Assembly: GCA_050084515.1 (NCBI GenBank) | Contig: CM114271.1 | Location: forward strand, 23,436,001-23,500,000 | DNA length: 64,000 bases | Origin: Blasia pusilla | Taxonomy: Eukaryota | Direction: 5' to 3' | Shown: positions 11,614 through 63,960 of the stretch, piece by piece | Layout of the letters: every line of letters starts with the position of its first letter | Position numbering within the stretch: position 1 is the first letter of the stretch | Translations under genes and position numbers: made by a program | Notes under the pieces: model-generated | Told to the model about the DNA's origin: nothing | The model's database searches: none | What the model saw: only the letters and a program-made list of their open reading frames with translations

Positions 11614-12293
11614 TGTCACAACCTGCGCTACACCCTACTGCTATCCCCCGTCAATCCGCACCAGCCAAAAATATGAGAAAAACGGACAGCGCTTCCGCCC
11701 ATGACCTTCCAAACAGAAAAATGACCAACAACCGTAATACACGCGTCTCCAGGGGCTCCCGACCAAGGTAACTCGCTTGCCTACCTACAAACAACGAATT
11801 CCCACCAACCCCCTCACATCTTTCTCATGTAAAAATAAAGAGTAGTAAAAACGGCACACCTAGCCTAAAACTCCACTCCTCAATCTACATCGGCATATCG
11901 AGCCTTGTCCACCCTGTGCTATCAAGGAATCCGGACACTAACACCCTAGCCCTATCCCACACACATACAAGAGAGGTGCTCCAACAGCCCAACATGAGAA
12001 AGATGGCTTAGGAAAGCCATCTTCCTCTCTTATATAGGGTTGGTAAGAGCCAAAAGGCTCTTCCCCTAAAAATAGCCCTCCCCTTGGTAACTAGGGGCGG
12101 GTGACCTGGTCAACAAGTCACTCGGTTGTGAAAGACCTCAACATGAAAGTTGTCAGAAACAACGTTTCTGACACAATGGACCTATCCTTAATCTCATCCG
12201 ACACAGTGAGACAAAGTTACACTCAAGATATTCCGCTGGCTCCTACGCCCTATCCACGATAGATCTCGGCCTATCGGCTACCCAGATGTGACA
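11614..12293 (-). repeat. 5' LTR of copy 2 (~680 bp)
   Basis: Bounded by inverted TGTCACA...TGTGACA termini (TG..CA). TATA-like CCTATATAA on the minus strand near 12030-12038. Near-copy adjacent at 12294-12951. Confidence 0.8.
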
Positions 12294-12951
12294 TCTATTT
12301 GCACCAACGAAATCCACGAAAAACGGACAGCGCTTCCGGGCACAGTCTTCCGAATGAAAAATTGACAAAGCAAACGCCAACCGACGTCTCCAAGAGCTCC
12401 CAACCGAGGCAACTCGCTTGCCTACCTGCAAACAACAAATTCCCCCTACCCCCTTGCATCTTTCTTATGTAAAAATAAGAGAAGTAAAAAGGGCACACCC
12501 GGCCCAAAACGCCACTCCTCAATCTACATTGGCATATCAAGCCTTGTCCACCCTACGCTATCAAGGAATCCGGACGCTAGCACCTTGGTCCCTATCTCAC
12601 ACACGAACAAGAGAGGTGCTCCAACGGCCCAACATGAGAAAGATGGCTTGGGAAAGCTATCTTTCTCCCATATATAGGTGTGGGAAGAGCCAAAAGACTC
12701 TTCCACTAAAAATAGCAACCCTCCTGGTAACCTGCGCGCACAGGTTAAGAGGGGTGGATGACGTGTTCAACAAGTCACCCGATTGAGAAAGACCCCAACA
12801 GGAAAGTCGTCACAAACAAGGTTCGTGACACAACGGACCTATCCTCAACCTCATCCGCCACCTCGAGACGAAGTTGCACTCAAGACAGTCCGCTGGCTCT
12901 CTATGTCGTCGCCACGATAGATCTCTACCTATCAGCTATTAAGATGTGACA
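12294..12951 (-). repeat. Second LTR of the same family in tandem, missing ~40 bp at its 3' end
   Basis: Aligns with 11651-12293 along its length (e.g. AAAACGGACAGCGCTTCCG, CAACATGAGAAAGATGGCTT) and ends with the same GATGTGACA. Confidence 0.85.
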
Positions 12952-14262: not shown

Positions 14263-19357
<5,095 letters not shown>

Positions 19358-38495: not shown

Positions 38496-41400
38496 TCATA
38501 TCGATGCATTGATTATTGGCACATGTTCCACATCCACCCTAGTAGCTTCCATTTTTGCATCACTTAGGACTCTAGCTCCTAAGGTATTTGCATCTGGTAG
38601 ATTTTGTGGTTCCATGCATGTGGCACGGAAGGTGGGCAAAGCATTACAAGCTCCATCTAGTGACTCTAAGTCATCAAAATAAACTCTCCGAGCTCTAGCT
38701 TCCTTCCTCATTACCACTTTCCATCCTCCATCCTCATCGGCATCTCCATAAAACACTTGTTGCACTTGTGATGGGAAAACAAATGGCTGATGATCTAATG
38801 GCTTGCATGACCTCAAGTTGGCCAACAGAAAACCCTCCTTATCTAATTTTATGGACCCTACTCTCGAATCCCAATCTGCTTTAACCCACCGCCCTCGCAT
38901 TAGTATTATGGGTTGTTCTAGAATCCCATAATCAAGTAAGAGAATATCAACCAACACCCCAACATATGAGTATAAACAATTCTGGTTGGAACTTTTTTCA
39001 TCAATAAATACTGCACCTATTCCACTATCATAAGTGGAGAAGGATGTTGCACCACTTGGCCCTTCTACCCTGAAGTGGTTTCCGTAGGCTTTCATATTCT
39101 TGAATGACAATGCCCTACTATTAGGAGGTATAGCTAACGATAGTAGGTGAGCATCCGGATCTTTTGAGTTGTCAATTGCATCCTGTGTGATGGTAGGGCG
39201 AATCCACTTTTCAAAAGGAATGTCTCTCGAACATGACTGATATTTCCTGTTCAATAACAATGTTAATGGTATTAGTACATTCTTTTGTATTTAATGTGTC
39301 AATACCAAAATAATATACACTTTGAGAGTCCGAACCGTAATTAACATAAATATAACCTTGAAAAGCATATATTGGAGAGTTTTACCTTTGCCAGTCAACC
39401 ATGACCTCTATAGTATGCAACACATAATGATGTGCTAAGTTGATCATTTCTTGCGAAAGTTGAACTGGAGTGCCCGCACCTTCTAGCTCCTCACCAGCGA
39501 TCCCCTCTTCCTCCCCATCATCCCACACTCGCGTTCGTACGTCTTCAAACCTTTTCATATACTCTGTCACAAACCCTAATGCCTCGTCCTTCACATACCC
39601 TTCTGCCATACACCCCTCTGGCCTAACTTTAGACCTTACATATTTCTTCATGTACCCCATATACCGCTCCATTGGATACATCCACCGACATGCTACTAGC
39701 CCACACATGTCTAATTCTTCTACGACATGAATCAACAAATGTGTCATCACGTCGAAGAAAGATAGAGGGAAATGCATTTCAAAGAGACAAAGGGTTATGA
39801 CAGTCTCTTCCAAGAGTTTGTCGAATAAAGCTGGATCATACACCTTTGTACACACCATTCTAAAATGCCGGATAATGTAATAACCACCATTCTCACATGG
39901 TCCTTTAGAAGACCACGGATGGAATAAGGAAGGACCTGCTGAATGAAGACATGATAATCATGTGATTTCATATTGCCCAATTTTTTATTAACCACAGACT
40001 TCGAGAGTTCTCCATAATATTTAGATGGCACCTTCAAGTTCTGAATCCTCGAAAGGAAAGTGTTCAAGTCATGGGGAGATAGACAATAATCGGAAACTGC
40101 TTTAAGCAAAACTTGGGGTTTACTAGGATAGGGTTGCAACCACAAATGGGATCGAATCCCACGGGCCTCCAAATCTCTCCTTACTTTCACAATATAAATC
40201 CAAATAAGGTCTTGACTAGATTCTCAACGATATTCTTCTCAACGTGCATTACATCTAATGTATGACGTATAAGCAAATTTTGATTGTATCGTCAAGGAAG
40301 CATGGACATCTCACAACTTGAACATAATAGCTAATATCCACAATCAAATCAAACAAAAGCTATCCTCCTCTATAGCCTCTATTTCATAACATAAAGAATA
40401 GATAATATAGAGAGGAAGCAGGATATTGGCCAGTAAGGCAAAAAATATATTATACTCAGCCTTTTCACCCCAGTTCTATTGTAGGGATCAATAGGGCCGT
40501 GTTCTCGACCCCCAATCTCATCATATGTATGTTTTTCATTTGCCCATCCAATAATCTCTCCGGAAAGTAGTCTAGGCACGCGTGGTCTAAGTTCTGCACT
40601 CCCGTTGAAATGAGATCCATACCTACGGGTCCTCCATGGATGGCTCAATGGGAGATATCGACGATGACAAACGTATATGGGCTTGCCACAAGACTTTGAG
40701 AAATCAGAATCCACTCAAGGCCCGCATATAGTACATCCTAGTTTTCCACCGTGGCTCTACCCAACTACAATTCCGTATGCTAAGTAATCATTTATGGTCC
40801 ATAGTAAGGTAGCTCTGAACATGAAGTTCCAACTTCCGCCTACCTTCCGAGCGTCATGAAATTGAACCCCTTTCCACATTTCTTGGAACTCTTCCACTAG
40901 AGGAAGCAAGTATGTGTCTATGTCTTTCCTATTTACGCTCTCCTTTCCTCGTATGATCAAAGAGAGCATCACAAAGAATTTTTTTGTCTGGAGCCAAGGA
41001 GGCAAGTTATAATTAACAAGAAGCACATGCCATGTTGACCACGAACTCGACTTGTCTGAAAATGGATTCACTCCGTCCAAAGCTAGCCCAAACCTGCAAT
41101 TCCTCTTCTCCTCGGCAAAGTCTGGATATAAGTTGTCCATGTGGCGCCATGCCTTTCAATGAGATGTATGCCTTACTAAGCCATCCTTGGTCTGATTCAA
41201 GGGGCCCCACGTTGACAATTCAAACAACGTCCTGCATCTAAACATACGTCTCATCCGAGGTATGACAGGAAAATGCCTTAATACCTTACATGGTACCAAC
41301 GTTCTACCCACTTTCTGGAACCTTGGTTTCCCACATAATGGACAAATCTCAGCTTTAGCCAAATCACCCCAAAATAAAAACACATCTAGCCGGACACGCA

Positions 41401-43709: not shown

Positions 43710-43892
<183 letters not shown>

Positions 43893-44528: not shown

Positions 44529-44731
<203 letters not shown>

Positions 44732-45699: not shown

Positions 45700-48600
45700 G
45701 CGGGTATATTAAAAAATTGTAACTTGGGATGTACTTAAAAATCATAACTATGGGGGGCTAACTCATAGATCTGAACCATTGAAGTTGTGAGGATTTAAGG
45801 CCTTCACTTGTACCAGGTTTCACCACCATCCAACAGTAGTACCAGTCGTTCACTCCATGATAACATGAAAATGTCACAATGACTCGAAATAATCTCACTC
45901 TTGACCCCTCTTTTTGTACCCTCCACACTCCACATGTGGCCCAAAAATCATGAAATGTTTTTGAGGATGGCACCCCTAACCCAAAAATAGAGGGAAAAAG
46001 GAAAAACTTCAAATGACCACTCACACACATAACTAAAAATCATAAACCCTAAAACGGGTCTTCCATTTTTGGTTGGAGCATGGAGAGCTAACTTGTAGAT
46101 CTGAACTGTTGACCATGTGGAAAGATGTAATGCCTCCTTGTGTCCTAGGTTTCATCACCATCCAATGGTGAAAGCCAGAGATAACTCCATCATAACATGA
46201 AAATGCCACAAGGACTTCAAAGAATCCTATTCAACGCCCTCTTACTCCTTGGCTTGTCATTTTGTACCCTGCACCCTCCACATGGGCCCCAAAAATCATG
46301 AAACTTTTTTTAAGATGGAACCCTTAACCTAGGAACTGAGGAGAAAAGAAAAACCATCAAATGACCACTCATACACCGAACTAAAAATCGTAAACCATAA
46401 AAACGGTCTTCCATTTTAGGTTTGAGCATGGAGAGCTAACTTGTAGATCTGAACCATTGAATTTGTAGAAGACATTAATGGACAGGCTCTGAAAAAATAT
46501 TCATCCACATCCAATGGTGGAAAACAAAGTTACAACCATGTTACGATGAAAATGAGACAACGCCTAAGAAAAAGACTACTCAAAGTCCTAGTCCTCCTTC
46601 TTGATGCATCATTTTCTCCTCTCCTCCTTAAATCTTGAAACTTTTCCGAGGGAGGAAACCCGTATTGAGGAACACAAGACAAAAGAAAAAATTACAAATG
46701 ACCACTCACACATGGTATTAAAAACCGTAAACCCTAAATAAGGTTTCTGATTTTTGGTATTAGCATGGGAACTTCAATAGAAGATCTGAACCGTCGAAGT
46801 TCTCAACAAATCTAATATCAAAGCTAGGAAAAATATTCATCCTCATCCAATGATGGAAAGAAAAGAAACCACTATGTTACCATGAAAATAATGCAAAGCC
46901 TCCGAACGAGACTATTCAAAGTCCTCGTCCTCCTTCTTGATCCATCATTTTCTCCCCTCCTCCTTAACCATGAGTCCTAAAATCTTGAAATTGTTCCCAG
47001 GGAAGCAACCCAACTCCAGGAACACATATCAAAAGAAAAAATTACAAATGACCATTCACAAATGGAATTAAAAATTGTAAACCCTAAAATTGATCTTTCA
47101 TTTTTGGTTTGAGCACGGAGAGCTAACTAGCAAATCTGAACCGTTCAACATGTGGACGGATTTGAGGCCTTGGTGTGTGTTAGGTTTCATCACCATCCAA
47201 TGGTGGGAGAAAAAGTAAACTTCATGATACAATGAAAATGCCATGACGACTCGAACATAACAACGCCATTTTATCTCCATATTCCTTATATTTCAGCTCC
47301 ATCCAACATTGGGAAGTCAAGATGCTAGAGTGCAAACATCAAAATTGAAGTAACACTTAGATCATTATTCGTGTTTTGCCTTTCTTCATCTTTCATCTCC
47401 ATTTGCTTGGCCCTCCTCTTCATCATCGTGTCTATAAATCATCAAACTTTGTCACAATATGTACTTATGTGTTACTATACCAATGGAAAAATAAAATCTC
47501 CAAATGGACACCCAAACATGGAATAAAAAATCATAAACCCTAAATATGATTTCCCATTTTTAAATTGATCAAGGAGTAGGATATGGAAAATCCACACGGT
47601 TGAAAAGTAAAAGGGCCTCCTCATGTCCATATTCCTTATTTTTAATCTCCATCCAACGGTGGGAAGTCAAGAGGCTAGAATGAAAACATCAAAATTTAAC
47701 TAGCTCTTGGAACATTATTGATGTTTTGCCTTTATTCCTCTTTCATAGGCATTTTGTTGGCACCCCTCTTCATCACCAAGTCCGTAAATCCTAAAACTTT
47801 GTCACAAGATGTACTTATGTGTTACTATACCAATGAAAAAATAAAATATCCAATTGGACCCCCGGCCTGGGAATTAAAAATCATAAACCTTAAACAAGGT
47901 TTTCTATTTTTAAATTGAGCATGAAGTAGGATATGGAAAATCCACACTGCCCAAAAGTAAAAGGGCCTTCTCATCTCCATAGTCCTTATGTTTCAACTCC
48001 ATCCAACAATGGGAAGTCAAGTTACTAGAGTGCAAACATCAACATTCAACTAACTCTTGGAAGATTACTTGTGTTTTGCCTTTCTTCGTCTTACATCTCC
48101 ATTTGCTTGGCCCTCCTCTTCATCACCATGCCTATAAATCATGAAAATTTTTCAAAAGATGTACTTATGTGCTACTATACCAATGGAAAAAGAAAATTTT
48201 GAAATGGACATCCAAAGAGGGAATAAAAAATCATAAACCCTCAATATGATTTCCCAATTTTAAATTGAGCATGGAGATGATATGGAAAATCCACATCGTA
48301 AAAAAGTAAAAGGGCCTTCTCATCTCCATAGTCCTTATATCTCAGCTACATCCAACGGTGGAAAGTCAATATGCTAGAGTGCAAACATCAAAATTGAACT
48401 AACACTTGGATCATTATTCGTGTTTTGCCTTTCTTTGTCTTCGTGTTTTTGCCTTTTTCTTTGTCTTACATCTCCATTTGCTTGGCCCTCCTCTTCATCA
48501 CCATGTCTATAAATCATGAAAATTTGTCACAAGATGTAATTATGTGTTACTATACCAATGGAAAAATAAAATCTTGAAATTAACGCCCGAGCAGGGAATA

Positions 48601-49500
48601 AAAAATAAAGAAACCCTTAATGTGGTTTCCTAATTATAAATTCAGCATGGAGTAGGATATGGAAAATTCACACTCTCCAAAAGTAAAAGGGTCTTCTCAT
48701 CTCCATAGTCCTTAAGTTTTGAGCTCCATCCAACAGTGGGAAGTCAAGATGCTAGATTGCAAACATCAAAATTCAACTAACTCTTGGAAGATTACTTGTG
48801 TTTTGCCTTTATTCCTCTTGCATATCCATTTTGTTGGCCCTCCTCTTCATCACCAAGTCTCACCAAGTATGCCCTAAATCAAGATACATTTCCTTGAGGG
48901 GCATCCCAACACCTAAAACAAAGGGGAAAAGAAAAAACTCCAAATCACCACTCATACATGGATTTAAAAATCATAAATCCCAAAGGAGGTGTTTCATTTT
49001 TGGCACGATAATGGGGAGCTAAATAGCATATCAGAACCGTTCGAGTAGTGCAAATAATTAAGAGAAAAGTCAGTGCCACGTTTTATCACCATATGATGGT
49101 TTGATGAAAAGATAGCTACATCTTAATATGACAAACTATTCCCAACATTCGTACTCAAAGGCCTCCTCCTCCTTCTTGACATCCCATTCTCTCCCCCCTC
49201 CCCTCACCAAGGGTTCTAAAAATCAAGAAACTTTTTACACAGGGGCACCCCAACACCAAGAACTAAGGGGGAAAGAAAAAACTCCAAATGACCACTCACA
49301 TATGGATTTAAAAATCATAAACCCCAAAGGAGGTGTTTCATTTTTGGTAGGAGCATGGGGTGTTAAATAGAAGATCCAAACCATTCAATTAGTGCAAAAA
49401 ATTAATTAAAATGCTAGTGCCAAGTTTTATCTCCATCTAATGGTTAGATGAAAAGATATTGTCATGTAAACATGAAAATGACACAACGGCTTCGAATAAT
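45700..49500. repeat. Tandem array of ~11 diverged ~345-bp units inside the CACTA
   Basis: AAAATCATAAACCC-like anchor recurs near 45739, 46036, 46385, 46721, 47071, 47527, 47877, 48227, 48601, 48967 and 49311. Confidence 0.9.
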
Positions 49501-49754: not shown

Positions 49755-50164
49755 AATTCTCTCTTTGTTGAACCTCTTGGCATGAGGTGGTGGAGCTATG
49801 GTCTTGCTTGCCTTGTGAGTGTAACACAAGCCTCTCATTAGGAGAGTGGGTTTGGTTTGACATTGAGAGAGATATGTGAGAGTGCACACATGTGAGAGCT
49901 ATGGTGTTGTAAAAAAGATTTCACCTTATTTTACAAAGAGAGAATGAGAGGGTGAGAGAGCTTCATGAGGGAGCTCGCTGGTTGCTCGATGTTTGGTGCA
50001 GGTTTGGGGACCGTGTTCCTCGCTTCATGGCTCATGGGAGTGCTCAAGGGAGCAAGAGCCGCGGTATTTTGACGTTTGTGTGCCGATTTTTCGTGTGAGA
50101 AAGTGGCGCGCGGAAGCGTTGCCCAATTTCTGATAGGGATTGAGTATGGGGGCAGGTTGCCCCA
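49755..50164 (+). repeat. Right part of the 5' LTR of copy 3
   Basis: 49758-49932 closely matches 58731-58888. The end GCGGAAGCG...GCAGGTTGCCCCA parallels the copy-2 LTR end GCGGAAGCG...GCAGGTTGTGACA. Confidence 0.7.
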
Positions 50165-53100
50165 CGCCGGTGCTCTTGGGAGCACCATTTAGCTTGTTGA
50201 TTTTTGTTTTCACAGGTTTTACATTTTTGTTGGGGGAGAAATCAGAGCGGAAGCACTGCCAAATTTTGTGTAGGAGAAAGAGACGTTGGGCTTTACGACA
50301 GTCCCTACCAATTTTTACTGGAATATCCAATTCAAAATGTTTTTTGATGCCATTGTAGATCGTAAAGCTGTGCACGCTATGCAATAGATGGTGCACAATT
50401 TGAGTTGCAACCAAAAAGTTATGGTCAATTTTGCAAAACTACCATTGCTAGGCGATTTTTAGGGTAAAATTGTTCAAACCCTAAACCAACCGTTGTCATA
50501 GTCACCGTCAATGGTCCGCCGTCAATGGTCAACCATCACCATCAACGGTACACTATCCACCGTCGGCCATCGCTGCCACCTACCGCTGCTTAGAGCCGCG
50601 TAAGGCCTTTGTCCACCCTTGGTTGCCATTGTTGTCATTACGGAGTGGAGGGTCTTCAACGACGACCGTTGATTCTCTGACTTGCCCCGCCACCACGTAC
50701 TTTTTTTTGGCCGCCACCATCATCGCAGTTCCGTCATCAACCAGTGATGGCAAGTGACCTCGGGTTATGGTGTTTGAGTTTTCATTTCATTCTGCTATGT
50801 TGTAATTGGTAGCCGCTCGACGACGATCGAGTACCGTGTTGTAACGCCCGTAGTCGCAACGCACCGTTGATTTCCGTGCCGTGCTGCTCATGGCCGCATC
50901 GCACCATCTCCATCGCGAAGCCGCTCCTACACTAAGGAGGACAATGTGAGTGTTGCTGACCGAGTTGGGATCGAGATTTGCAATTGTCGAGGAGCGACAT
51001 CGACATTATTGTCAGATTACCCATTTTGGTCTCTTACCATGTACGTGTGAGGGAATTCTGGTTATTGGGAAGTTATTTGGGATATTGGGGTTTGTACTGA
51101 TGCTGAGAGCATCGATGACGTATGGGTAGAGGGGACATAGATATATGTGGGATGTCGAGAGTTGAGGATGGTTTATCGATGAGACTATAGATCAGTTGAT
51201 TTGCCATACCACGCCGATTGTTGCTGCACAACACACGTCTCGGTGAGAGAGTGTAGCTTGAGTGTTGCATGTTAGATTGAGTGATTGTATGATTACTCGC
51301 GAGGTTGAGAGTGATCATGCGAGGGGGGCACGAGGGTCATCACGGCGTCCTTTCCGGACTTTGAGAGGCGAGGTGGTGGACCGAAGAGTAGCTCTAGAGG
51401 GTTTAAGTGGAGTGGCGTGAGGTTTCGAGGGTCTCCACCTGCAGGACCACCTCGACCTCCTTCTATGTCATCTTCAAACAAGGAGGAGGGCGTAGAGGAG
51501 TTGAGTAGTACTTTGCCACTCACATTGAGTAGTCTACTGCTTGGGCGTACAAGATGGACGACCGGGGTAGAGGATTGCGTAGGTTCTCAGGTGTAGTAGG
51601 CACGATAGAGTTGCACGACTTGATCGTAGAGTTTAGGAGTTGGTACGACTCACAACGGGCTACGAACTCAAGAACTTGTTTATAGCATGGAACGGTATAT
51701 TCCAGCATTTAGAGGGGGCATCCATGGATGATTTCCATGAGTTCTCCCATAGATATGCCCAAGAGATTGAGGCATGGTGACTCTACTATGACCCACACTA
51801 TATGTCATGGACAGAACCGTTCCCAGATGAGGAGGAGGAGTCAAGAGAGGCTACTTCCTCTTTCACCAGTGATGTTTTAGGAGGGATAAGTTGCATTGGA
51901 GCAGTTGCACCGTCCAGTTGGGTTAGTCCCTGGTTCAACCCCGTGGTTGAGTTCTTTGCTGAGTTGAGGGCGAGCTACCAGGGGTTACGGACGGAGAAGT
52001 TGCGGAGCATCCACGACTTTCAGAGGCGCCCGGGTGAGAGTTTGCGTGAGGCTTACACTCGCTTGCGCCGTTTGATCAACATTACTTAGGGGGGTGGCAG
52101 ATGCTCAGGCTATCCAGTCATGGTACACGATGTTGGATCAGATCTTGCGGATATGGGTGCGGGAGGGGTTACTTCTTATGAACACCTCACCTACGTTGAG
52201 AGATGTTTTTAGGATCGCCAAGAATATTGAGCGCAACATGGCGGAGGAGAGCGTAGCCACCATGGGTTCTGGGCGAGAGTAGTTACGATTGCCTGCACCA
52301 CCGGTGTAGCAACGTGGACTCTGAGATAGGTCGATTGTGGCACCACGAGCTTAGGGAGGATATCGAGAGGCCATGCCACAGAGACTTGCGCCTTCACATG
52401 TGGCTCAGCAGCAGCCACCTACGATTACTTGTTGGTCATATGGTGGAGCCCATCATCAGCGTGATGGCATTCGTCAGGGTCATGGACGTGTGCCTCAACC
52501 TGGAGGAGGAGATGGTGCTGCACCAGGAGGTTATCAGTGTGACAATTGTCACAATTATGGTCACACGCGCGCCAGGTGTTTCAGTTTACACCCTCAGTTA
52601 CGTCTGGACTGAGGGCCAAAGAGGGCACCAGAGCAAGTTGTCGGTCCGGATGGGCATAGAGGATGTGCATCCAAGTGGTTACGTTGGGGGACGAGGAGCT
52701 AGAGTTTCCCGAAAGGGTGGTGGAGTTGCTCGTGGAGGAGGTAGAGTCCCACCACCTAGACGCGTCGAGGGAGACACCAAGCGTGAGGCTGGGATGGTTT
52801 CTTAGATACATCAGCTATATGAGCAGATTTTGGCTATGGCACTGAGATTACCCGATGCCGGATCCGCGGCATCGACATCATATGGAGCAGCCAGAGATAT
52901 GAAGGATCATGGTTGGATGTGCGGGGTTGTCCAAATGGAGGCTGCCGCAGTTGTGACGTGTGAGCAGCCGTAGAGTTGGATCCATAGTGAGGGGAAGCTA
53001 GGAAACAGACCAAGCTTCCTCAGTCTTTCACGTAGTCTGAGGCAATGAGGACCCCATCAATGGAAATTGATCAAAGTTCCCGGAGAGTTGGTGATGTTAT

Positions 53101-54274
53101 TGGTTTGCAAGCATAGAGGGCAATGGGAGAAACGAGTATGATAACTCCTATTGTTGATGCTCAGCAGGAGCATGTGTCGAGTATGATGTTGGGGGCGGGG
53201 CCATGATGGTGTACCGTGCTCCGCTATTTTCTGCTTTCGATGTTATGATATTGGGAGGTACGCCCGCCGAGGTGTTTCGGCTGGCCGCTACACTATGTGA
53301 GCATGGAGTTGGAGTTCCTACATCACGTTCAGAGGTGATTGCAGAGGAGGTGGTGGATCTGCCCTTGGAGCGGATGCTCAAGCCGTCCACGTCAGATTCA
53401 TGGCAGGTTGCGGCTGCTAGGATGGCGGAGATGCCCGCTAGATCCGCGATAGAGCATGCCATGGCTTCTTTTGGTATCGAGTTGTTGGATAAAAGGGGAG
53501 AGGTCTTGCAGTTGGTGAGTCCTAGAGGTAGAGCTTTTAGTCCGCAGCGCGTCTTGTTGGATTCAGGAGCGCAACCCCTGATGTTGGGGAAAGCGTTATT
53601 TAGAGGATTGGGCTTGATGAGAGCCGTTATGGAGCGTTGTCCATTCCGGATACAGATATCCTTGGATGGAACTAGTACCACATAGTATATCACCCGACAG
53701 AAGGTCGTGGTGAGGATTTTCCTGAGACATCCTACAGATGAGTCCGTTGTGCGAGCCAAGGCGATAGTGACTGATGCAGAGTCCTACAACGTCTTGGTTG
53801 GTGGAGCAATGTTATACTAGATGGGGTTTTCCCTAGATTACTGGGAGGAGTCAACGTCCTACAGACCAGGATGGCAGTCAAGTGATGGGCGCATTAATTC
53901 ATTACCCTTTTGATTCACAGGTGCAGTGATCGAGCGGCGGCCAAGAGAGATGGCGACCTTAGCAGAATTTAGCAGTGCCATCACTTGGCCTAGTGATACA
54001 ATTGAGGGATATGTCCATGCAGAGGATACTCCCGTTCTTGACATTTATATGGAGAGGAGTGTCATGGTAGCCGCATCAGTCCGTGGAGGAGAGGTGCCGC
54101 TTTGGGGCTCGACTAAGGAGCTTCGACGCTTAGCCACTGAGCATGTGGAGGCCGCGTGGTGCGAGACCTTTGCACCAGAGTGTGACATGTTAGAGGAACC
54201 CTAGGAAAGGCAAGAGTGATGTTATGACCCCTTTGGACTCCATCCCGATTGTGTGGTGCATCCTAGAGTAGTGT

Positions 54275-55215
54275 ATTCAGGTGTTGGATGGATGTCTTTG
54301 GAGGGATCAGACCTGGGTTAGCTGTTGTTTTGCATGTTGGAGTGCGCGTGCAGCAGTACCTGTATGTGGAGATTGTTGATGTTACGAGGCGATCTTCACT
54401 TCACCATATGGTGTAATTACCGCTCTGTTTTCCCGACTTGTTGTCTGCGTCCGCCATTCTAGGTTACTAGAGTTCCCTATCGAGGGACATTTCATTGTTG
54501 GGGGTGCAAGACTTGGAGCGAGTAGGGACCATAGACTTGGTCATTGCTGGTTGGCCATGTCAAGGCCAGTCGAGTGCTGGACGGGATAGCGGATTAGTTG
54601 ACTCTCGGTCCGGGTTATTTTGGGAGATGATGCAGATTTTGTGACACTTGCAGGAGCATCACTCTCGTCCTCCAACATACATTCTGAAGAATGTGCCAAT
54701 TTTGGGCAATTCGAGGTCCCGTGTGGTGACAAGTGCACATCAGGTGCGCGCATGGATTGGCCTGGGAGTTTTGTTGGATGCGGCGAGTGTGGGTTCACGA
54801 GCACATTGACCGCATCTTTGGTGGACCAACTTGGTACCACATGAGGTGTTGCAGAGGGCTTATGCAAGAGAGGAGCGTCCCTCCGATTGGTGGGTGGATT
54901 CTATATTGGATCCAGGACGTCAATCACAAGCAGTGAGGCACGATGATCGACTGTCGTTGACTATGGTCAATAGGATTGGCATGCCATGAGCAGCCTTTCC
55001 CACATTGGTAAGTTTTTCCGCTTCCTATGCATTCAAGAAGGCCGGACCTGGCTTGGTTTGGGATGACCAAGTATAGAGGCTGGTGGAGCCCAACGCCGAT
55101 GAGCAAGAGCGAGCGATGGGATTCCCCATAGGAGTAACGTCAGTACCGTCACTATTAGAGGCATCACGACGTCATGTCTTAGGTTAGGCGATGGACATGA
55201 TCGCTTGACATGGAT
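54275..55215 (+). pseudogene. Full-length C5 cytosine DNA methyltransferase catalytic domain within pol (pseudogenised)
   Basis: IQVLD/DVFGGI (I), YLYVEI (II), RDI (III), IDLVIAGWPCQGQSSAG (IV; PC at 54555-54560), DSRSGLF (V), YILKNV (VI), AH*PHLWWTN (VIII), EQERAMGFPIGVT (IX), RRHVLG*AMD (X). One frame from 54291 to 55199 with 7 stops. Confidence 0.92.
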
Positions 55216-57946
55216 TTTCAACTTAGGAGTAGTTGAGCATCGTTGTTTGAGGATGTGACAGATCACAACTATTGTGTTGGTGAGCCCCATGCCTACCGAG
55301 ATGGTTGAGGCAGTGGCTGGGGGCAAGATCCGAGGAGATCGACACATCAGGGGTGATTGGGAGAGACACACTTGGACTTCTTGGGGTGTTTTGCAGGTAC
55401 GCCAAGAGATGGTAGCCACAGCATCGAGCGTCGTTCCGGGTACTACAAGTGGAGATGAGAGTTTTGTTGTCTGAGACGGGGTTGCACCATAGCAACCATC
55501 TACACCCGTGTGAGAGATTCCTATCGTAGTCACGATGGAGACTTGGGAGCGAGATATGGGCCCTAAGTTAACAAGAGGAGAGCGGTGCCGGATACACCAA
55601 TTCCTTAGGAGTTAAAGGTGTTGTTTTGCATTTAGTATGCATGATTTGGGTACGCTAAAGGGTCCAGGGATCCGCATTGAGTTGTCGAGTGACCAAAAAC
55701 CCTACAGGTATAGTCACATGGAGAGGGCTCTCATTGAGAGTAAAAGCCATGACTTGGTTGGAGCAAGACTAGTGGAGATGTTGCATGGAGAGTATGCATT
55801 TGCCATTGTCATGCCGGCCAAGAAGGACGTGCATGGCAACTGGACGGATAGTCGGATGTGTGGAGATTACCGACCTATCAATTGGCAGAGGAAGTCCGAT
55901 AGGTATGCCATGCCCACCCCTGAGGGAATCTTTGATGCGATTGGGCATGCACATGTCTTCAGTTCATTAGATTTGCGAGCCGGATACCATTAGTTGCTTA
56001 TCAAATTGGAGGACAAACAGAAGACGGCATTTTGGGGCATCAATCCTCACGCCCATATTGAGGAGATTGATCAAGGGGCGTACTTTCCAATCGCATACCG
56101 ATTGGAGCATGTTGGGGCTTGGAACTGTGCTCACCCAGCATGACGATGATGGTAGAGAGTTTATGGTGGCTTATGCTAGTGGCTCGAACAATGTTGCAGA
56201 GGCAAAGTATAGCTTGTATGAGGGTGAGTGCTTGGCTGCAACGTGGGCTGTCGCACATTTCAGATGTTATCTATTCGGCAATCTCTTTACCATCATTATT
56301 GATCATCAGTCACTTAAGTGGGTGATGGAGTCTGACAAGCTTATAGGGAAGCTTGCGAGGTGGGCTCTTTTGTTGTAGGAGTATGACTTCCAGGTGGTGC
56401 ATAAACTTGGGACACTCAACCAGGATGCAAATGGTTTGAGCCGTAATCCATGCCCGAGTCAGCGAGATGCGACTAGAGCTCGTTGGCATGGTGAGAGTGA
56501 TGAGGATTTGGTGCCATGATGGCATGCGTCAGCCTATTTGGGCTTGTTGGCTATGGAGAGCCAGATTGTTGAGACTTTGATGGCAAGGTCTGATGGAGAG
56601 TCCTTAGATCTAGAGGCATGTGAGGAGACGATAGGTGGCCGAGACATTCACAACGATGGAGTGGTCTTGAAGTACCTATGTACTAGCAGTGTCGCCAGCA
56701 CAGTGGATGCTAGAGAGCGGGATCGTATCTTACAACGAGACAGACGGTTCCGGTGGGTGGGGACACATGTGTTGCAAGTATGGGAGGATGGTAGAGTGTG
56801 TGTAGTGCCTCATCCTTCGCAGAGATTACATTTGGTGTGTCATGCCCATGAGTAGTTGGGTCACTTTGGAGTGAAGCGAACATACAACTTGCTCCAGATT
56901 CAATTTTGGTGGCGAGGCATGCAGACTAACATTTAGCAGTTTGTTGTCAGATGCATGGCGTGTGATCAAGTCTGAGCATCGTTCAATGCTCCGACTCCAC
57001 AGTTGCATCCACTTCCGATCATGGTTTTAGGTTATAGATGGAGTTTGGATTGTGCAAGATCTTTGCCTTTGACAGAGCGCCATTATGTGTTGTTATGTGT
57101 TGGTGATGTTCAAGCACTTCTTCAAGTGGATAGAGTTAGTTGCATTTCCTGACAAAGCGAGTCAAGGAGTAGCGTATGCCTTCCTAGATCAAGTGCTGAG
57201 TCATTACATTGCATCAGTTGAGGTGTTGACAGACGAGGGTACAGAGTTTCAAGGGGAGTTTCAAGCCTTGTGTGATCAGGCACTGATCGACCACCGCACC
57301 ACTTCGCGAGATCATCCTAAGGCGGCTGGACTAGCGGAGAGGATTATGCACATGGTGAAGAGAGCATTACGCAAGTAGGGCTTGCAAAGAGGTCACCTAG
57401 GAGATTGGGACTTCAGTTTCCGTGGTTGGCGATGGAATACAGATTCACAGGCAGACATCCTTAGCGTCTTTCTCACCGTACTTGCTGCTTTATGGCCGTG
57501 AGCCAGATTTACCTATGGCCATTCGTCAAGATGTTGGTGAGGTGTTGAACCTTGATGACCCTGATGTATGGATGCGATCATGTTCTCAGAGGGCTCAATT
57601 GTTTCAGAGAGTGATGCCCATGGCGTTTGAGAACTTGGCGATTCCGTAGCATCGTGATACATTGAGGTATGCGACTATACAGGGAGGTGGTTATCAACCT
57701 ACTTTCTGGAGGTTTCATCAGGGAGACTATGTCTACTTATAACAGACGGCATCTACAACGTTGGATGTGACTACAGGGCCCACCATCTTGAGAGTGCGTG
57801 AGATTTTATCATCAGGTGTTCTCTTATTGGAGGGACGCGATGGTATGGTTTGGAAGGACCATGTGCGTAACTGTGCGTTATGTCACCTTCCGAACATTGA
57901 CCGTATAGTTGATCCGAGTTTAGCAGTAGTTCGTGCAGGCTTGCGA

Positions 57947-58087
57947 TGTATGTTGTGTGGTTCTGCCCGCGGTGCAGCCATTATGCCAGTCTGTGATGGA
58001 TGTTCGAGAGGATGGTATATGGCATGTTTGACGCCACCTCTCACTAGGGTTCCTCAAGGACGATGGATGTGTCTCAATTGTACATAG
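57947..58087 (+). pseudogene. PHD finger at the integrase C-terminus
   Basis: CMLCGS...VCDGCSRGWYMACLTPPLTRVPQGRWMCLNC, a C4HC3 pattern with His to Tyr (CAT to TAT). Confidence 0.9.
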
Positions 58088-58399
58088 CATAGGTAGTTCT
58101 ACATTCCGACTTGTGTCTGTGATATGGATGACAAGAAGGCGACTAACAATGGGGCCACATGAGCACCCGACCTTCTTGCTCTTAGCGTCCGAGAGATGTA
58201 TGTCATGGTAGGTAGGGATAGATGGCTATCTGGAGTTAGAGGGACCTAACCACCAGCTAGGGGGGCAATTGGAGATATTTTGGTACTTCTTGTCTCATTG
58301 TTTGGATGCCATGAGTAAGCATGGGATGGTGCGTGTTTGTATGTGTGTGTTCGGTGACAGCGATGTAAGTTGCGTAGCGATATATATGCGTACGACAGT

Positions 58400-58888
58400 T
58401 GTCACATCTTTTAGGATAGATCACGTGAGATCTACTAGAGCGCCTTTGGAAGTAGTGGAGGATAGGCTTAGGAGGTCGAGGATGATCTACTAAGGCCCCG
58501 GGAAACCTGAGAGAGCAGGTTTCCCCTTCGTTTTGGCTCATTTGAAGCCATATTGAGGAACTTACTATTTTAGGTAAATATCATTTTGCCTTTATATTTT
58601 TGGTAAGTAACCCTTGATCTCCTACATCATGTCAAGAGCCAAAGAGGTGACTTGAGAGCATAGGTTACCGTGGAGAGAGCTTGGGAGAGAGGAGGGGTAT
58701 ACCTCAAGGAGAGAGAGCTTGAGAGCTCATTCTCTCTTTGTTGAACCTCTTGGGATGAGACGCAGAGCTATGGTCTTGCTTGCCTTGTTAGTGTAACCCA
58801 AGCCTCTCATTAGGAGAGTGGGTTTGGTTTGACATTGAGAGAGATATGTGAGAGTTATGGTGTTGTGAGAGAGATTTCATCTTATTTT
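58400..58888 (+). repeat. 3' LTR of copy 3, truncated
   Basis: Starts TGTCACATCT like the copy-2 LTRs and matches the split 5' LTR. Confidence 0.75.
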
Positions 58889-59019
58889 AATTGGAGATAT
58901 TTTGGTACTTCTTGTCTCGTTGTTTGGATGCCATGAGTTAGCATGGGATTGTGCATGTTTGTGTGAGTGTGTTTGGTGATAACGATGTATGTTGTGTAGC
59001 GATGTGTATACGCACGACA
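58889..59019 (+). repeat. Direct duplicate of the ~130 bp segment 58267-58398
   Basis: AATTGGAGATATTTTGGTACTTCTTGTCTC...ACGACA occurs at both sites. Confidence 0.9.
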
Positions 59020-61535
59020 TAGTGCACACCTATTATAATAAGTGATCCTAGGGTTGGTCATGTGAAGTCTCACGTTGACATGTAAAGACCTAAGGAGCAT
59101 AGATTTTCTTTGTCTTGCTTTTCTCGAAAACGAAAACTATTTGATTTAGATCCCAACTTCTCCACTCTTGCCGCTAATGTTTTTAGTGAGTTTGAGCAGG
59201 TTAAGGAAGTTCAAAAAGGCCATAATATTTTAGGTATTGTTCCGAGTGATACGAGATACTCTATAGAAATTTGTCCCGGTCTTGAAGAACAAGACGATGA
59301 TGGAAACATTTCCTCTTCGCTCTATGATTTAGAGGGATGGTATATAGGTGATGAGCTTGATCGTGAATATAGGCATATCAATTATACAGAGTTTGACCTA
59401 AGTGTTGATAGTAGTGAGATTGGAGATTTCAAAGTTGATACTCTTTCTCCCCATGATGATTCAAGTGTTTAATAAAGCAATCAGTATATATTAATATATG
59501 TTATTTCCATTGATGTTTGTATGTAGTGTTCATGCTACAAATTATGTTACTTTTTATTTTTTTCATTTTATCCAAAATTATCATGTTATTTAAATGTAAT
59601 GACTTATCACATATTTTGTAGATTGTGTCGAATTAGTATACGAGGAACCGTATATTTTAAATGACGAGTCAAGAAAGTAATGGTGAGTCATATATTCCTC
59701 TTGGTGAAGAAGCAATTGAGCTTATGGCTGAAAATCCTGAGAGAATTGAGGTTGTACAAGTATCGAGCGATGTTTATGTTCCAACACCTGTGTTTGATGA
59801 AGAAGTAGACAATTAGTACATGATAGTTCCTATCGAGGATATCAGGCAAGAGCTCGATGAGAGTGTATCTAGAGTTGTATCCACTCCATTAGTAGGACAA
59901 ATCAATCCATGTATTAACATTGAGCCATCACAAGGTGAGGAGGAAGAAGGAGAGACAAGTTTGACTAATGATTGTATTCCTTCCTCTGAGCCAATATCCT
60001 CTAGCTATTCATTTGTTTGAAATGCCTTAGGTTCTAGGTTGTGGGCTGTAAGTAATGGTCATACTAATAACTTTGCAGACTCAAGTGAAATCAATACTGT
60101 TGAGTCCCACTTGATGGTAGATTCATTATCTTTTTGAAATATGAAATGTAATAAACTTTCCCTTGTGGGTAAGATATCAATGTAATAGTGAATTTTGTTA
60201 GTTCTTTTATTCCATAAATGTATATTTGTAAGTGTTTATGTATATTGAAATTTACTTTTTCCTATGTAGAAACAATCATTATATGATGGCTCAAGATCAA
60301 GGAGCCGGAAGTAATGGTAAATGGCCCTTTAGGGACCTCACAAATTTCGGGGGCAATATGCATCTTGAATCTAAGACAGAAAAAAGGCTGGGTATCAAAG
60401 GAAAAAATGATAACATCAAGATGTTTGCTTTGTACCTCTTTCTACAACTAGAGCGTCTGCAATGTAAGAATATTTAGCGCTATTGTAATGTAAATTTAGT
60501 TGGATTTTGTGGAATATTTTATTTATTTTTATATTTATTATTTCATCTCACTTATTATTGTAGATTCCAAATCCAGTTAATGCATGACGGCAAAGTCAAA
60601 TTCACAAAGATGCGAGAGCCGTCAAGTACAAGTCGAAGATATGGAAATTCGGATCTAAGGTGATTTTCTAATTTATTTGATTAGTATTTCAATATTGAAA
60701 CTATTTTGAATAATCTATGCTTATTATGAATTTTTTTTTGTTATGCATTTGAAATATAGTTGTTGAAAATGTGGTCCATTGTTGTATTAGCTCAAATTCA
60801 GAGATAAAGATTTGATGATTTTATTTAGCTTGATGATATTGGATGCCATTGTAATTCTTGTAGAATGAGTGATACATATGAAGCAAATGCGATTGTTCGA
60901 TTGACTCCTGCACCCATTGAAGAAGTAGTGGCTTCTTTGACCACGACTAGAATTGATGACTTGAATGTTGAAGATACTATCAGGTATTAATATTTTTGTA
61001 TATGCTTCGAGTTGCACGAGCGCAAGGGCAAAGTCCCAAAGACGTAGACGTTGTGATCTACTTGATGTACTCGATGGATCAATTATTGGCGATTCTTTGT
61101 TAAGGACAAATACCAATGAAGGCATACAATCCATTGGAAGATGTCTTCCTCCCATTAAGGAAGTACTCGCTCCTACAACTGCTGCTACGATTGATAATTT
61201 TGATGTTGATAATAATATAAGGTATACTTTTTATTTTATTTTCTATTATTAAAAGATTTATGTATATTTTTCGAATCTTATATACCAATTGATTTTGTAC
61301 CATTTTATTATTTATTTAGCTTAATTATCGCACACACTGATTTCATTCCTAAAATTTTTATTCTTCGCAGTCTTCGTGCTCCTTCCAACCCTAAAAGATT
61401 ACAAGATACGCTTCAAGCAGCACGAGCCAATGGCCAAAATGAAGGCATGTTAATTTAGTCGCATCACATAATGGAGGACTATTTGGTGATTCAACAACAA
61501 GGAATAATATACTTCACGAAAATCTTCCTCATGAA

Positions 61536-63960
61536 ATGGATTATTCTGAGGTTCATACAGAGGTAAACGAAGATCCTATACTTTCCACTCATCCAAATGT
61601 GGCATGTAGAAGGGTTGTAGACTTAACGAAGTTAGTGAATATTGCATGTATATGTGAATTTGAAGAGAAACACATCGGAATTCTTTGGTTGGGAGATCGT
61701 ATTGATAGTATTACTGGTCGTTATAGTATTGGATGCATGGATGATGTATATTCAAGTTGCCAAGCACTTCATTGGAAGTGTGAGAGAGTGAAGTTGTCAA
61801 AGTCCCCACACTCTCCTTTTGGGACGTGTTGCGAGTATGGTAAGATCTTGTTACCATATTTGAAGGCTTCACCTCCTTTACTATTCGAGTTGATTGTGGG
61901 TGTTATGTCAAAAAGTATGCATTTTTTGCGTAATGCATGTGCCTACAATAGCGCGCTTTAATTGGAATCCACTGGAGCACATGCTATAGAGCATGAAGGT
62001 GGTGCAAGAAATTTGAGAATTCAAGGTGGTATTTATCACTCTATTGGACCTCTTAATGCGGAGACAAGTGTTTCTCCACACTTTGCATAAATTTATATTC
62101 ATGATGATGAGTATCAGATCGAATAGAGGAGAAGGATCATGAATCAGGATAATTGTGATCAATTGAGGGTTGAGATTTTGAGGGGATTACAAGACATGTT
62201 ACTTGTCTATAATCCATATATCGCTATCTTTCGATATGTGGCCATGGATCCATGTAGTTCCAATTTTCATATTATTCTAAAGGGTAGTAAGCAAGGGCTT
62301 GATGCAAAACAATACACATTGCCTATTGCTTTGGAGATTGCTGCTATCTTGCTTGGAGACGGAAGCGAGTCAAGAGAAGGACGTAATATTATTTTTCATT
62401 TACATGAAGGAGGTATTTGTCAAATGTTTGACTTAAATAAGGCCTATATTCCATTGTATTTTGTATTGCCTTTTTTGTATGGTGAAGTTGGTTGATATCC
62501 TTGCATACCAATACAGTCGGGTGATCTTAGAGGAAATGCAACAAGGAGAGGGCGTGTTGTGATGGAGGAGGATGGAGGTGAGGATGTTGAGCATAACATA
62601 CCAGAAGGAATAGAAGAAGAGCAACACCAAGGTGGAGGAACGACTAATGAAGCAGGTTCAGAGAGTATTACTGCTCTACAATTTGCTTTGTTTCGACTTC
62701 AAGTACGAGCTAATGTTGAAGATCATAACATGTTGTTGAGGTTTGCTCGTCTTACTCAAGAATATACGGTAGATATGTATGCGAGTATTGAAATGCAACA
62801 ATTAACTTGGATACGGCTATATCAAAATGAGCTAAGAGTTGATTTATATGAAGGTGTGAGAGATGTTATGACTCGGCATGATAATGATGGTCATGCTATA
62901 GGGAGACGAGTCATTTTACATTCCTCTTTTATAGGAGGACCTCAACTCATGCATCAATTGTATCATGATGCCATGGAAATTGTGAGACATTTTGGGAAGC
63001 GAGACTACTTTTTGACTATGACTTGCAACCCTAAGTGGCCAGAGATTACTTCTGCTCTACTTCCTTGACAAACAACCTCAGATCATCTTGACTTGGTTGT
63101 ACGCGTTTTCTAACAAATGAAGAAAGAGTTGTTGAGGCTTATAGTTGATAAGTATATTTTGGGGCGAGTCATGGGATGTATTCATGTAGTGGAGTCTCAA
63201 AAGAGAGGTCTGCCACATGTGCATATTTTGATTATTCTTGCCTTAGAGGATAAGCCAAGGACAAAGTCTGATTTTGATGATATTATTTCTGCTGAGATTC
63301 TTAATTTGACTACTCATCCAAAACTCTACTCGATTGTGAGAAATTGTATGATACATGGACCATGTAAAATACTTCATCCAAGTGGACCATGTATAGACAA
63401 AACAACCAAAAAATGTTGTAAGGGCCATCAAATGCGTTTTACCTCCATGAAATGGAGAATGAGGATAGCTATCCTATCTATAAGAGGTAATCTTATGATC
63501 TTTGTTTCATTTCTTCTATCTTTCTATTTTTTTTAAAGTTTCCTTTAAGTAATAACCTATTCTTATATTTGTGTTTATGTAGATGTGATAATGGTAGGTA
63601 GATTAAGAAGTCAAATCATGACTTTGATAATCAGTGGGTTGTTCCCTATAATCCGATGTTATGTACCTTATTTGATTGCCATATCAATTTGGAGATAACG
63701 AATAGCATATCAGCAGTGAAGTACTTTTACAACTATGTATACAAGGGATCAATTGCGATATCCAACATACCTTGATGCAAGGTATGTTGGATTTATATTT
63801 TTACTATGGTATTTAAAAAAAATTAGTATATTGAAAGGTTGGATTTTCTCTTTGGTCTCTGCAAATACGTTTTGTCTTCCGAAGCATGTTGGCGAATTTT
63901 CAAGTTTGGACTACACGCTGAACAACCAAGTATTATAAGATTAATTGTTCATTTGCCACA
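61536..63960 (+). mobile_element. Helitron Rep/helicase gene, Rep (HUH endonuclease) part, decayed; continues beyond window
   Basis: CC..GKI.LP, RVILHSSFIGGP, FLTMTCNPKWPEI, ESQKRGLPHVHILI (HUH), VVPYNP and KYFYNYVYKG, with stops and intron-like gaps. Confidence 0.93.

Follow-up and report, generated by a model that had tools for sequence, protein, structure and literature searches.

The window analysed here is a stretch of 64,000 nucleotides from Blasia pusilla (GenBank assembly GCA_050084515.1, contig CM114271.1, positions 23,436,001 to 23,500,000 of the forward strand; 44% G+C, zero N), and all positions below are counted within it. Its main subject is a decayed retrotransposon, copy 2 of three related copies in the window, in which the remains of a cytosine-C5 DNA methyltransferase (DNMT) lie between protease and reverse transcriptase (Table 1). 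We show here that this domain is a DNMT3-like relic within a Ty3/Gypsy-type element, and that the same arrangement recurs in other bryophytes and in streptophyte algae, with unbroken enzyme genes in Marchantia.

Results

Architecture of the element

Pfam scans of the three forward frames between 50401 and 60302 recover DNA_methylase, RT_RNaseH, Integrase_H2C2, rve and a PHD finger in this order. Together with a CCHC zinc knuckle and the protease motif LLDSGA, this identifies copy 2 as an element of the structure gag(CCHC)-protease (PR)-DNMT-stop (TAG CAA CCA)-reverse transcriptase (RT)-RNase H (RH)-integrase (INT)-PHD. Relatives sharing the LLDSGA motif score the Pfam families Asp_protease_2 or gag-asp_proteas. 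With the order PR-RT-RH-INT and an integrase built of an H2C2 domain and a DDE core, the element falls into the Ty3/Gypsy group (Metaviridae). A chromodomain, the mark of chromoviruses, was not found by Pfam at the integrase C-terminus of the window element; a PHD finger stands in its place, which is borderline in copy 2 and scores E 1e-9 to 1e-12, without ambiguity, in intact relatives. Likewise, Pfam scans recovered no tyrosine recombinase of the kind that defines DIRS elements, while Integrase_H2C2 and rve were found. The RT of copy 2 is incomplete: a deletion at 56050 has removed about 510 bp with the YxDD core, and the missing sequence is still present in copy 1 at 4744-5255. The preliminary description of this DNA had placed the methyltransferase between protease and RT, and this position holds: the domain is an in-frame part of a Ty3/Gypsy-type element and intact relatives have the same order.

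Table 1. Coordinates of the three element copies and of their features within the window
Feature	Position	Strand	Remark
Copy 2, decayed element of ~9.3 kb	49756-59020	+	5' end truncated; Pfam on frames with stops as X, repeats, read depth
5' terminal repeat X1	49756-49933	+	last ~178 bp of the X unit left; 84-94% identical to 58729-58889
gag zinc knuckle CDNCHNYGHTRARC	52538-52579	+	CX2CX4HX4C; motif
Aspartic protease active site LLDSGA	53554-53571	+	motif
DNMT3-like C5 methyltransferase relic	54276-55214	+	Pfam, phmmer, motifs
DVFGGI	54291-54308	+	motif I
GWPCQG	54549-54566	+	part of IDLVIAGWPCQGQSSAG; motif read
LKNV	54684-54695	+	ENV to KNV, Glu now Lys; motif read
LWWTN	54816-54830	+	motif read
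ERAMGFPIGVT	from 55107	+	motif read
Eight in-frame stops of the relic	54414, 54468, 54642, 54807, 54987, 55074, 55185, 55206	+	frame with stops as X
In-frame stop TAG CAA CCA	55490-55498	+	between DNMT and RT; candidate programmed read-through site
RT, N-terminal part	55535-56050	+	METWE at 55535, MCGDYR at 55856
RNase H	56079-56384	+	PF17917, E 1.2e-27
Integrase H2C2 zinc domain	56814-56972	+	PF17921, E 6.5e-13
Integrase core	57091-57318	+	PF00665, E 4.2e-4, 21 bits, under the cut-off of 32.6
PHD finger	57947-58081	+	C-terminus of the integrase frame; PF00628, 23.5 bits (cut-off 24), E 5.7e-5
Polypurine tract	58258-58266	+	directly before Y1
Repeat Y1	58267-~58399	+	self-BLAST
Repeat X2	~58400-58889	+	self-BLAST
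Repeat Y2	58889-~59020	+	self-BLAST
Copy 1	289-5733	+	82-87% identical to copy 2; broken off after RNase H
Copy 1 DNMT, C-terminal half	3469-3870	+	from motif VIII on
Copy 1 stop TAG CAA TCA	4171-4179	+	in frame
Copy 1 RT	4534-5010	+	Pfam RVT_1; YIDD at 4858
Copy 1 RNase H	5287-5589	+	domain search
Copy 3	5663-9300	-	~75% identical
Copy 3 open frame of 384 aa without DNMT domain	7502-8656	-	clean in-frame deletion
Copy 3 stop TAG CAA CCA	7370-7378	-	in frame

Motifs and decay of the methyltransferase domain

Translation of the relic in the single frame of base 54276, with stops read as X, gives 313 residues. Cytosine-C5 methyltransferases are described by a numbered series of motifs, among them I, IV (PCQ), VI (ENV), VIII (RxR), IX and X, and these six appear in the reading in canonical, non-permuted order. 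The series reads DVFGGI, YVEI, IDLVIAGWPCQGQSSAG, DSRSGLF, LKNV, AH*PHLWWTN, ERAMGFPIGVT and LG*AMD, with asterisks for stops. The Pfam profile PF00145 (DNA_methylase) matches the reading at E 2.1e-10, its 41 bits being well above the cut-off of 22. A phmmer search of 1.84 billion cluster representatives returned 2360 matches at E<=1e-3, of which 573 reach E<=1e-10 and 152 reach E<=1e-30; the top match is a Calypogeia protein (E 3.1e-67) that is 59% identical over 191 residues in one frame. The motif series of the preliminary description, its length of about 310 residues and the exchange of Glu for Lys in the ENV motif were all recovered, and the profile match that it had proposed as a check was obtained. 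Reading through eight stops and two frameshifts does leave scope for wishful reading, and one may ask whether the window holds a real methyltransferase at all or a chance resemblance. However, against the profile match and the long similarity to the Calypogeia protein within one frame, the probability of a chance resemblance is negligible.

The decay of the domain is extensive. The seven stops that had been reported were found again up to LG*AMD, and an eighth lies beyond; one of the stops falls into motif VIII. Among the catalytic residues, the PCQ motif alone is kept. At motif I the frame is shifted: VLD belongs to the frame of 54200, DVFGGI to that of 54201. A direct GATGGATG is present there at 54287-54294, and the duplication of 4 bp (GATG) that had been suggested therefore fits as the cause. 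A second frameshift, which had been missed, lies near 55199, where a gap of one base relative to copy 1 is followed by ...LTWIFNLGVVEH in a different frame. With eight stops, two frameshifts, KNV in place of ENV and a stop in motif VIII, the window copy has no intact catalytic open reading frame (ORF), and judged from its sequence it is a pseudogene that would be unable to methylate anything. Six of the eight stops sit in alignment columns that are mostly Gln or Arg among the relatives. Among the places at which at least 20% of the DNA reads disagree with the window, A or T in the window stands opposite G or C in the reads 667 times and the reverse is seen 344 times; transversions make up 461 places. 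The placement of the stops and the bias towards A and T fit decay by deamination of methylated cytosine.

Type of the methyltransferase and its relatives

Kinship to DNMT3 was measured in sequence and fold on the relatives P0003 and P0257, not on the broken window copy. All 31 sequence matches of P0003 in the PDB are DNMT3A, DNMT3B or DNMT3C (29, E ~1e-9) or the entries 4onj and 4onq (2), which are titled only 'DNA methyltransferase' in the PDB and which we take to be plant DRM. An AlphaFold model of P0257, which is 60% identical to the window reading, was built from a 40-row alignment and reached a mean predicted local distance difference test score (pLDDT) of 91.3. In a Foldseek search with this model, the matches listed at the top are all DNMT3A, 3B or 3C methyltransferase domains (best E 2.2e-19, target-normalised template-modelling score 0.83), at ~20-23% identity in the structural alignments. 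Thus, by the sequence and the fold of its relatives, the window domain is a relic of a DNMT3-like cytosine-C5 methyltransferase, as its motifs had led the preliminary description to propose. Invariant in 13 streptophyte-type proteins are the FxG of motif I, AGWxCQG, ENV, the Arg of motif VIII and ERExAMG. Purifying selection on the domain is evident from the ratio of nonsynonymous to synonymous substitutions (dN/dS) among six intact metagenome copies, taken for the DNMT domain only: four pairs with dS <2 give 0.114-0.189, the least saturated of them (L001/L002) 0.139 at dS 0.25. The ratio is 0.198-0.258 in three pairs with dS >2, and saturation leaves eight pairs without a value.

The nearest relatives come from bryophytes, namely from Calypogeia fissa (59-61% identity to the window reading), from many Marchantia polymorpha gene models (47-58%) and from Sphagnum troendelagicum (46-59%). 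Further named relatives belong to Closterium sp. NIES-68 and Mesostigma viride. Among the Marchantia relatives are Mp_8g17980 and the long gene model Mp_4g09160 (1278 aa, cluster of 18 sequences), in which all catalytic motifs are intact. A fragment of 226 aa from Klebsormidium nitens, KFL_005910020, scores E 4.4e-51 against the family profile; its origin from KnitGypsy-Dnmt3, the methyltransferase-bearing retrotransposon of this alga, is not established. That such a family persists in a land plant, previously put forward as a possibility, is borne out by these annotated relatives in Marchantia, Calypogeia and Sphagnum, and by a host gene of the window, DCC1, whose nearest named proteins are from liverworts. 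Several of the relatives are annotated as ordinary genes, for instance in UniRef as 'DNA (cytosine-5-)-methyltransferase' for Sphagnum and Marchantia, which would suit a domesticated or former host DNMT3 gene amid transposon debris. However, the domain has no introns and continues in one frame with PR upstream and RT downstream, it exists in hundreds of copies, and CCHC, PR, RT and RNase H are found in those gene models as well, so that a host gene is very improbable.

Unbroken polyproteins (P0221, P0238) have the order (CCHC-)PR-DNMT-RT-RH-INT(-PHD). We typed 250 DNMT-bearing matches by the positions of PR, RT and INT: 38 show PR-DNMT or DNMT-RT, 139 show RT-DNMT-INT, 72 contain the DNMT alone and one has an odd order, which leaves 73 unassigned. 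Every named relative in which the DNMT follows PR comes from a streptophyte (Mesostigma, Closterium, Marchantia, Calypogeia, Sphagnum). In a FastTree phylogeny of 236 domains the two orders need two changes only. One clade, chlorophyte in all named members, comprises 135 typed rows with the order RT-DNMT-INT and 32 untyped rows, and the other, streptophyte in all named members, comprises 36 typed and 29 untyped rows and includes the window (supports 85 and 93, Shimodaira-Hasegawa-like, SH-like). A quick IQ-TREE run on 45 rows gave a 28-row streptophyte PR-DNMT clade with Mesostigma, Closterium and the K. nitens fragment (SH-like approximate likelihood ratio test, SH-aLRT, 85), a 10-row bryophyte clade that includes the window (support 99) and a 13-row chlorophyte clade (support 86). 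Two Tetraselmis proteins with the DNMT-RT order belong to neither clade and have very long branches.

Neighbouring copies, abundance and transcription

Both other copies in the window have lost parts of the domain. Copy 1 has a deletion of about 600 bp that takes out motifs I-VI; the presence of the domain at the same position in this copy, on which the preliminary description had relied, thus stands as to the position, with the C-terminal half alone remaining. The open frame of copy 3 aligns to residues 27-275 of the Calypogeia protein P0258 and then skips to 622-672. The final residues of the domain (CLTWIVSLGMVEQ) survive in copy 3, which is therefore a deletion derivative and not a pre-insertion state. 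The copies 1 (4210-5733, +) and 3 (5788-7339, -) face each other as a large imperfect palindrome of ~76% identity, and both end inside RNase H, ~55 bp apart.

Abundance was estimated from reads mapped to the window at >=80% likeness, with depths that sum both mate orientations. In the DNA run X12 the depth is 1435-2128 over the DNMT, ~2430 over PR and 2370-3230 from RT to INT, while the flank at 59142-60600 has ~2.6-9.7. The DNMT is covered hundreds of times more deeply than the flank, and the genome therefore holds hundreds of copies, the majority of them with the domain. The half loss in copy 1, the complete loss in copy 3 and a DNMT depth of ~60-85% of that of PR together suggest that derivatives without the DNMT are common in the host genome. 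The same three observations could be read as traces of a one-off capture, that is a fragment of a host DNMT3 or of another element that was nested into copy 2 only. Such an event is hard to reconcile with intact relatives from several plants and contigs that have the domain at the same position and in the same frame, with the residues retained in copy 3 and with the read depth, and we consider it very unlikely. An independent insertion, named beforehand as the finding that would speak against an element-borne enzyme, is likewise contradicted by the order in the intact relatives and by read depth.

Three stranded RNA runs cover the DNMT to a depth of 29-61 on one strand and of 0.5-5.8 on the other, and the flank to a depth of at most 1.7. 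The family is thus transcribed in sense, assuming the usual library type. A joint from 55657 to 56205 that skips 547 bases occurs in RNA only, with 9, 23 and 5 reads in the three RNA runs and none in DNA. Splicing was rejected as its source, for the ends AA..CA are not intron-like, and the joint probably stems from one expressed copy with a deletion.

A conserved stop codon between methyltransferase and reverse transcriptase

All three window copies have a stop of the form TAG CAA YYA at the matching site between DNMT and RT. The sequence UAG-CAR-YYA is the leaky-stop context of tobamoviruses. In the related locus L001, an ORF1 with PR and DNMT (1369 aa), a single TAG and an ORF2 with RT-RH-INT-PHD (1047 aa) follow each other in one frame, and L004 and L005 are built in the same way. 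The stops are at 5083 in L001, at 4661 in L004 and at 4509 in L005, and the contexts are TAG CAG TTA, TAG CAA TCA and TAG CAA CCA. A stop followed by CAR occurs at the matching site in 16 related loci, 15 of which came from a scan for the first in-frame stop 119-158 codons past motif IX, with L004 as the 16th. Their contexts are strict TAG-CAR-YYA in six, TAG CAA CCC or CCT in four and TAA CAA CCC in six. We infer that the conserved stop is a programmed read-through site, a candidate role suggested by the sequence. The distant relatives L070 and L078 have the stop TGA CGG 48 codons past motif IX, followed by 221 and 270 open codons, which may represent a different read-through context.

Terminal repeats and element ends

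The element had been described as a long terminal repeat (LTR) retrotransposon, and in this point the description has to be corrected, as its terminal repeats are split direct repeats of the layout X ... Y-X-Y. Self-BLAST of copy 2 did not find a plain LTR pair, and two plain LTRs are absent from all three elements compared (copy 2, L054 and L065), none of which has a Y beside X1. The self-comparison shows no homology to the element repeats upstream of 49753. At the 3' end of copy 2, 2169 loose read ends lie at 59019 and the depth falls from ~1800 to ~3-10 past 59141. The relatives L054 (1679-10805) and L065 (6671-15880), which are ~72-73% identical to the window from RT to INT, have the layout X1 ... 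Y1-X2-Y2. Their ends read TGTCATG...CACGACA (TGTC...GACA), and they are flanked by target duplications of 4 bp (AAGG in L054, CATA in L065). An LTR of 622 bp with a truncated 5' partner was considered and rejected, because L054 and L065 show the X...Y-X-Y layout together with target duplications. Directly 5' of the truncated end of copy 2, at 45900-49500, lies a tandem repeat array with units of ~344-350 bp that are 60-86% identical.

Other features of the window

Two host genes were found on the reverse strand. DCC1, a sister chromatid cohesion protein, lies at 24878-25573, with PF09724 in its matches; there are five matches, and the three named ones are all from liverworts (Calypogeia fissa 58%, Marchantia paleacea 50%, M. 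polymorpha 52%), so that by this gene the host is probably another liverwort. Exons of a CDC48-type AAA ATPase lie at 16572-17585 (Pfam AAA, E 8e-49). Remains of other transposons are ORFs with DUF4218 and DUF4216 at 38496-39957 (-), domains which we take to be typical of CACTA-type transposases, and a Helitron_like_N domain at 62496-63068 (+; E 7.5e-30). A tandem duplication of ~620-630 bp (11677-12293 and 12318-12951) is 82% identical, and near-perfect blocks of a 6-base period at 43710-43888 and 44532-44729 are mutually inverted, ~650 bp apart.

Discussion

Cytosine methylation is the main weapon of the host against transposons, and a transposon with its own de novo methyltransferase is a paradox. 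It is very probable that 54276-55214 is the pseudogenised methyltransferase of an old, dead Ty3/Gypsy-type copy belonging to the streptophyte Gypsy-DNMT3 lineage, and that this lineage works as follows. In intact relatives, ORF1 encodes Gag (CCHC), protease and the DNMT3-like methyltransferase. A single in-frame UAG with a CAR-YYN context ends ORF1, and ORF2 continues with RT, RNase H, integrase and the PHD finger. At its borders the element has split direct repeats (X ... Y-X-Y), its ends read TGTC...GACA, and it is flanked by target duplications of 4 bp. If the UAG is leaky, the methyltransferase would be made together with Gag and protease, in excess of RT and integrase, and the enzyme would therefore belong to the abundant Gag-PR product. 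The enzyme of functional copies may methylate cytosines de novo, on the DNA of the element or at its insertion sites; the preliminary description had suggested methylation of its own cDNA or of insertion sites, as self-silencing or host mimicry. In the window the enzyme is dead and two neighbouring copies have lost half or all of the domain by deletion, yet the family is present in hundreds of copies and is transcribed in sense.

Several observations weigh against this reading. Intact copies are known from relatives, and none was seen from the genome to which the window belongs, of which the analysis covered the window. RNA reads are mostly <90% like copy 2 (5272 of 6715 in run X15), which points to other copies as their source, and loose RNA read ends of high agreement suggest that few loci are expressed; transcription hence does not demonstrate activity. 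Strict TAG-CAR-YYA is replaced by CAA CCC/CCT or by TAA in 10 of the 16 loci, the polyprotein P0221 has no stop at all between DNMT and RT, and the putative read-through is argued from context and conservation. Both trees are unrooted and their deep supports are modest (85-93, SH-like). The link to KnitGypsy-Dnmt3 consists of one K. nitens fragment of 226 aa and a figure legend. The enzyme of KnitGypsy-Dnmt3, the only Gypsy-type case described, gave no detectable de novo methylation when assayed in yeast, a result called inconclusive by the authors in the available text (PMC5890265).

A different history would be convergence, in which bryophyte elements captured a DNMT3-like domain independently of the Klebsormidium Gypsy-DNMT3. 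Capture of DNMTs by retrotransposons recurs (PMC5890265; 10.64898/2026.05.21.726589), and the available text of the first of these papers words the acquisition as 'in the K. nitens lineage'. The comparison also relies on one short K. nitens fragment, whose clade sits on a long branch (1.24). On the other hand, this fragment matches the family profile at E 4.4e-51 and groups with Mesostigma and Closterium within the PR-DNMT clade, the split-repeat layout matches the DIRS-like repeats given for the K. nitens element in a figure legend (PMC5890265), and the domain order is common from Mesostigma to the bryophytes. Convergence is thus unlikely, and we prefer descent within one streptophyte lineage. 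Later papers of the same group speak, in the parts available, of 'streptophytes (Gypsy-DNMT3)' (10.64898/2026.05.21.726589; PMC12344493).

A wider picture is offered here tentatively, as an idea that we would not rate as the probable one. Rather than a peculiarity of Klebsormidium, Gypsy-DNMT3 might be an ancient family of the green lineage that divided into a chlorophyte form, with the DNMT inserted after RNase H and before integrase, and a streptophyte form, in which the DNMT ends the Gag-PR product before a leaky UAG. The latter would be transcribed and possibly mobile in bryophytes including Marchantia; its enzyme would be produced at Gag-like levels and packaged together with the particle, and insertion would proceed by an integrase despite DIRS-like split repeats. 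Derivatives that lack the DNMT, such as copy 3, would then show that the host setting decides whether the enzyme pays. Gene models with intact motifs in Marchantia polymorpha move the question to an organism with genetics, methylomes and transformation. Bryophyte models named 'DNA (cytosine-5-)-methyltransferase' or 'hypothetical' that are retrotransposon ORFs could also inflate counts of host DNMT genes.

Comparison with known systems

Ngaro/PAT-type elements have split direct repeats with the layout A1-ORFs-B1-A2-B2, and this topology equals the X1 ... Y1-X2-Y2 of the window family. Unlike these elements, the window family has a DDE-type integrase (H2C2 and rve), TGTC...GACA ends and 4-bp target duplications, and its Pfam scans contain no tyrosine recombinase.

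Among cellular enzymes, DNMT3A/3B/3C and plant DRM are the best and almost the only solved relatives, and the motif order of DNMT3 is that of the window domain. In contrast to cellular DNMT3, the window-type domain comes without PWWP or ADD and is encoded in a retrotransposon ORF. DRM is described as rearranged in the available text of PMC5890265, whereas the window-type domain is not.

Chlorophyte elements have the order RT-RH-DNMT-INT-PHD, as in the pol of Scenedesmus sp. PABB004 (KAF8056149.1); other carriers are Haematococcus, Monoraphidium, Chromochloris, Cymbomonas and Chlamydomonas eustigma. They share with the window family a homologous DNMT (31-38% identity), RT, RH and INT of the Gypsy type and a C-terminal PHD finger. 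They differ in the place of the DNMT, which follows RNase H and precedes integrase instead of standing between protease and RT, and they form the sister clade in both trees. Examples of this lineage are P0018 (Scenedesmus) and P0190 (Haematococcus); a Tudor domain is found in P0007 and a chromodomain in P0195 and P0210. Our literature search, with supplements, figures and subscription journals outside its reach, found no paper describing these chlorophyte elements. Within the same limits it found none on elements of the window type in liverworts, mosses or other land plants, and none under the Marchantia gene-model identifiers of the family.

Retrotransposon-borne DNMTs have been described in Symbiodinium and in K. 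nitens (KnitGypsy-Dnmt3), and the following statements hold for the accessible text of that source (PMC5890265). KnitGypsy-Dnmt3 and the window family have in common a non-rearranged DNMT3-like domain in the coding region of a Gypsy-type element with integrase. Purifying selection on the DNMT is similar, with Ka/Ks <0.2 in KnitGypsy-Dnmt3 and 0.11-0.19 in the relatives of the window copy. The repeats of KnitGypsy-Dnmt3 are DIRS-like according to a figure legend, and those of the window family are split direct repeats. KnitGypsy-Dnmt3 resides in a charophyte alga with 'fewer copies', whereas the window family resides in a land plant with hundreds. The words 'PHD' and 'readthrough' occur 0 times in the main text of PMC5890265. 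The dinoflagellate elements SymbioDIRS-Dnmt3 and SymbioLINE-DNMT are also retrotransposons with a C5 methyltransferase, and the SymbioDIRS-Dnmt3 enzymes methylated CG de novo in yeast (PMC5890265). However, they belong to other element classes, with a tyrosine recombinase in SymbioDIRS and a LINE in SymbioLINE, and to another host group, and they go back to independent acquisitions (PMC5890265).

EpiLTRs resemble the window family as LTR-type elements that combine a cytosine methyltransferase with a chromatin-reader domain, again by the available part of their description (10.64898/2026.05.21.726589). Their DNMT is sister to DNMT4 and lies at the 3' end of pol, together with an adenine methyltransferase and a chromodomain (10.64898/2026.05.21.726589), whereas the window family has a DNMT3-like domain in ORF1 and a PHD finger. 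What is new here is thus a land-plant member of the streptophyte Gypsy-DNMT3 kind, a kind described in 2018, and its notable features are a conserved stop, a PHD finger, and split repeats bounded by target duplications.

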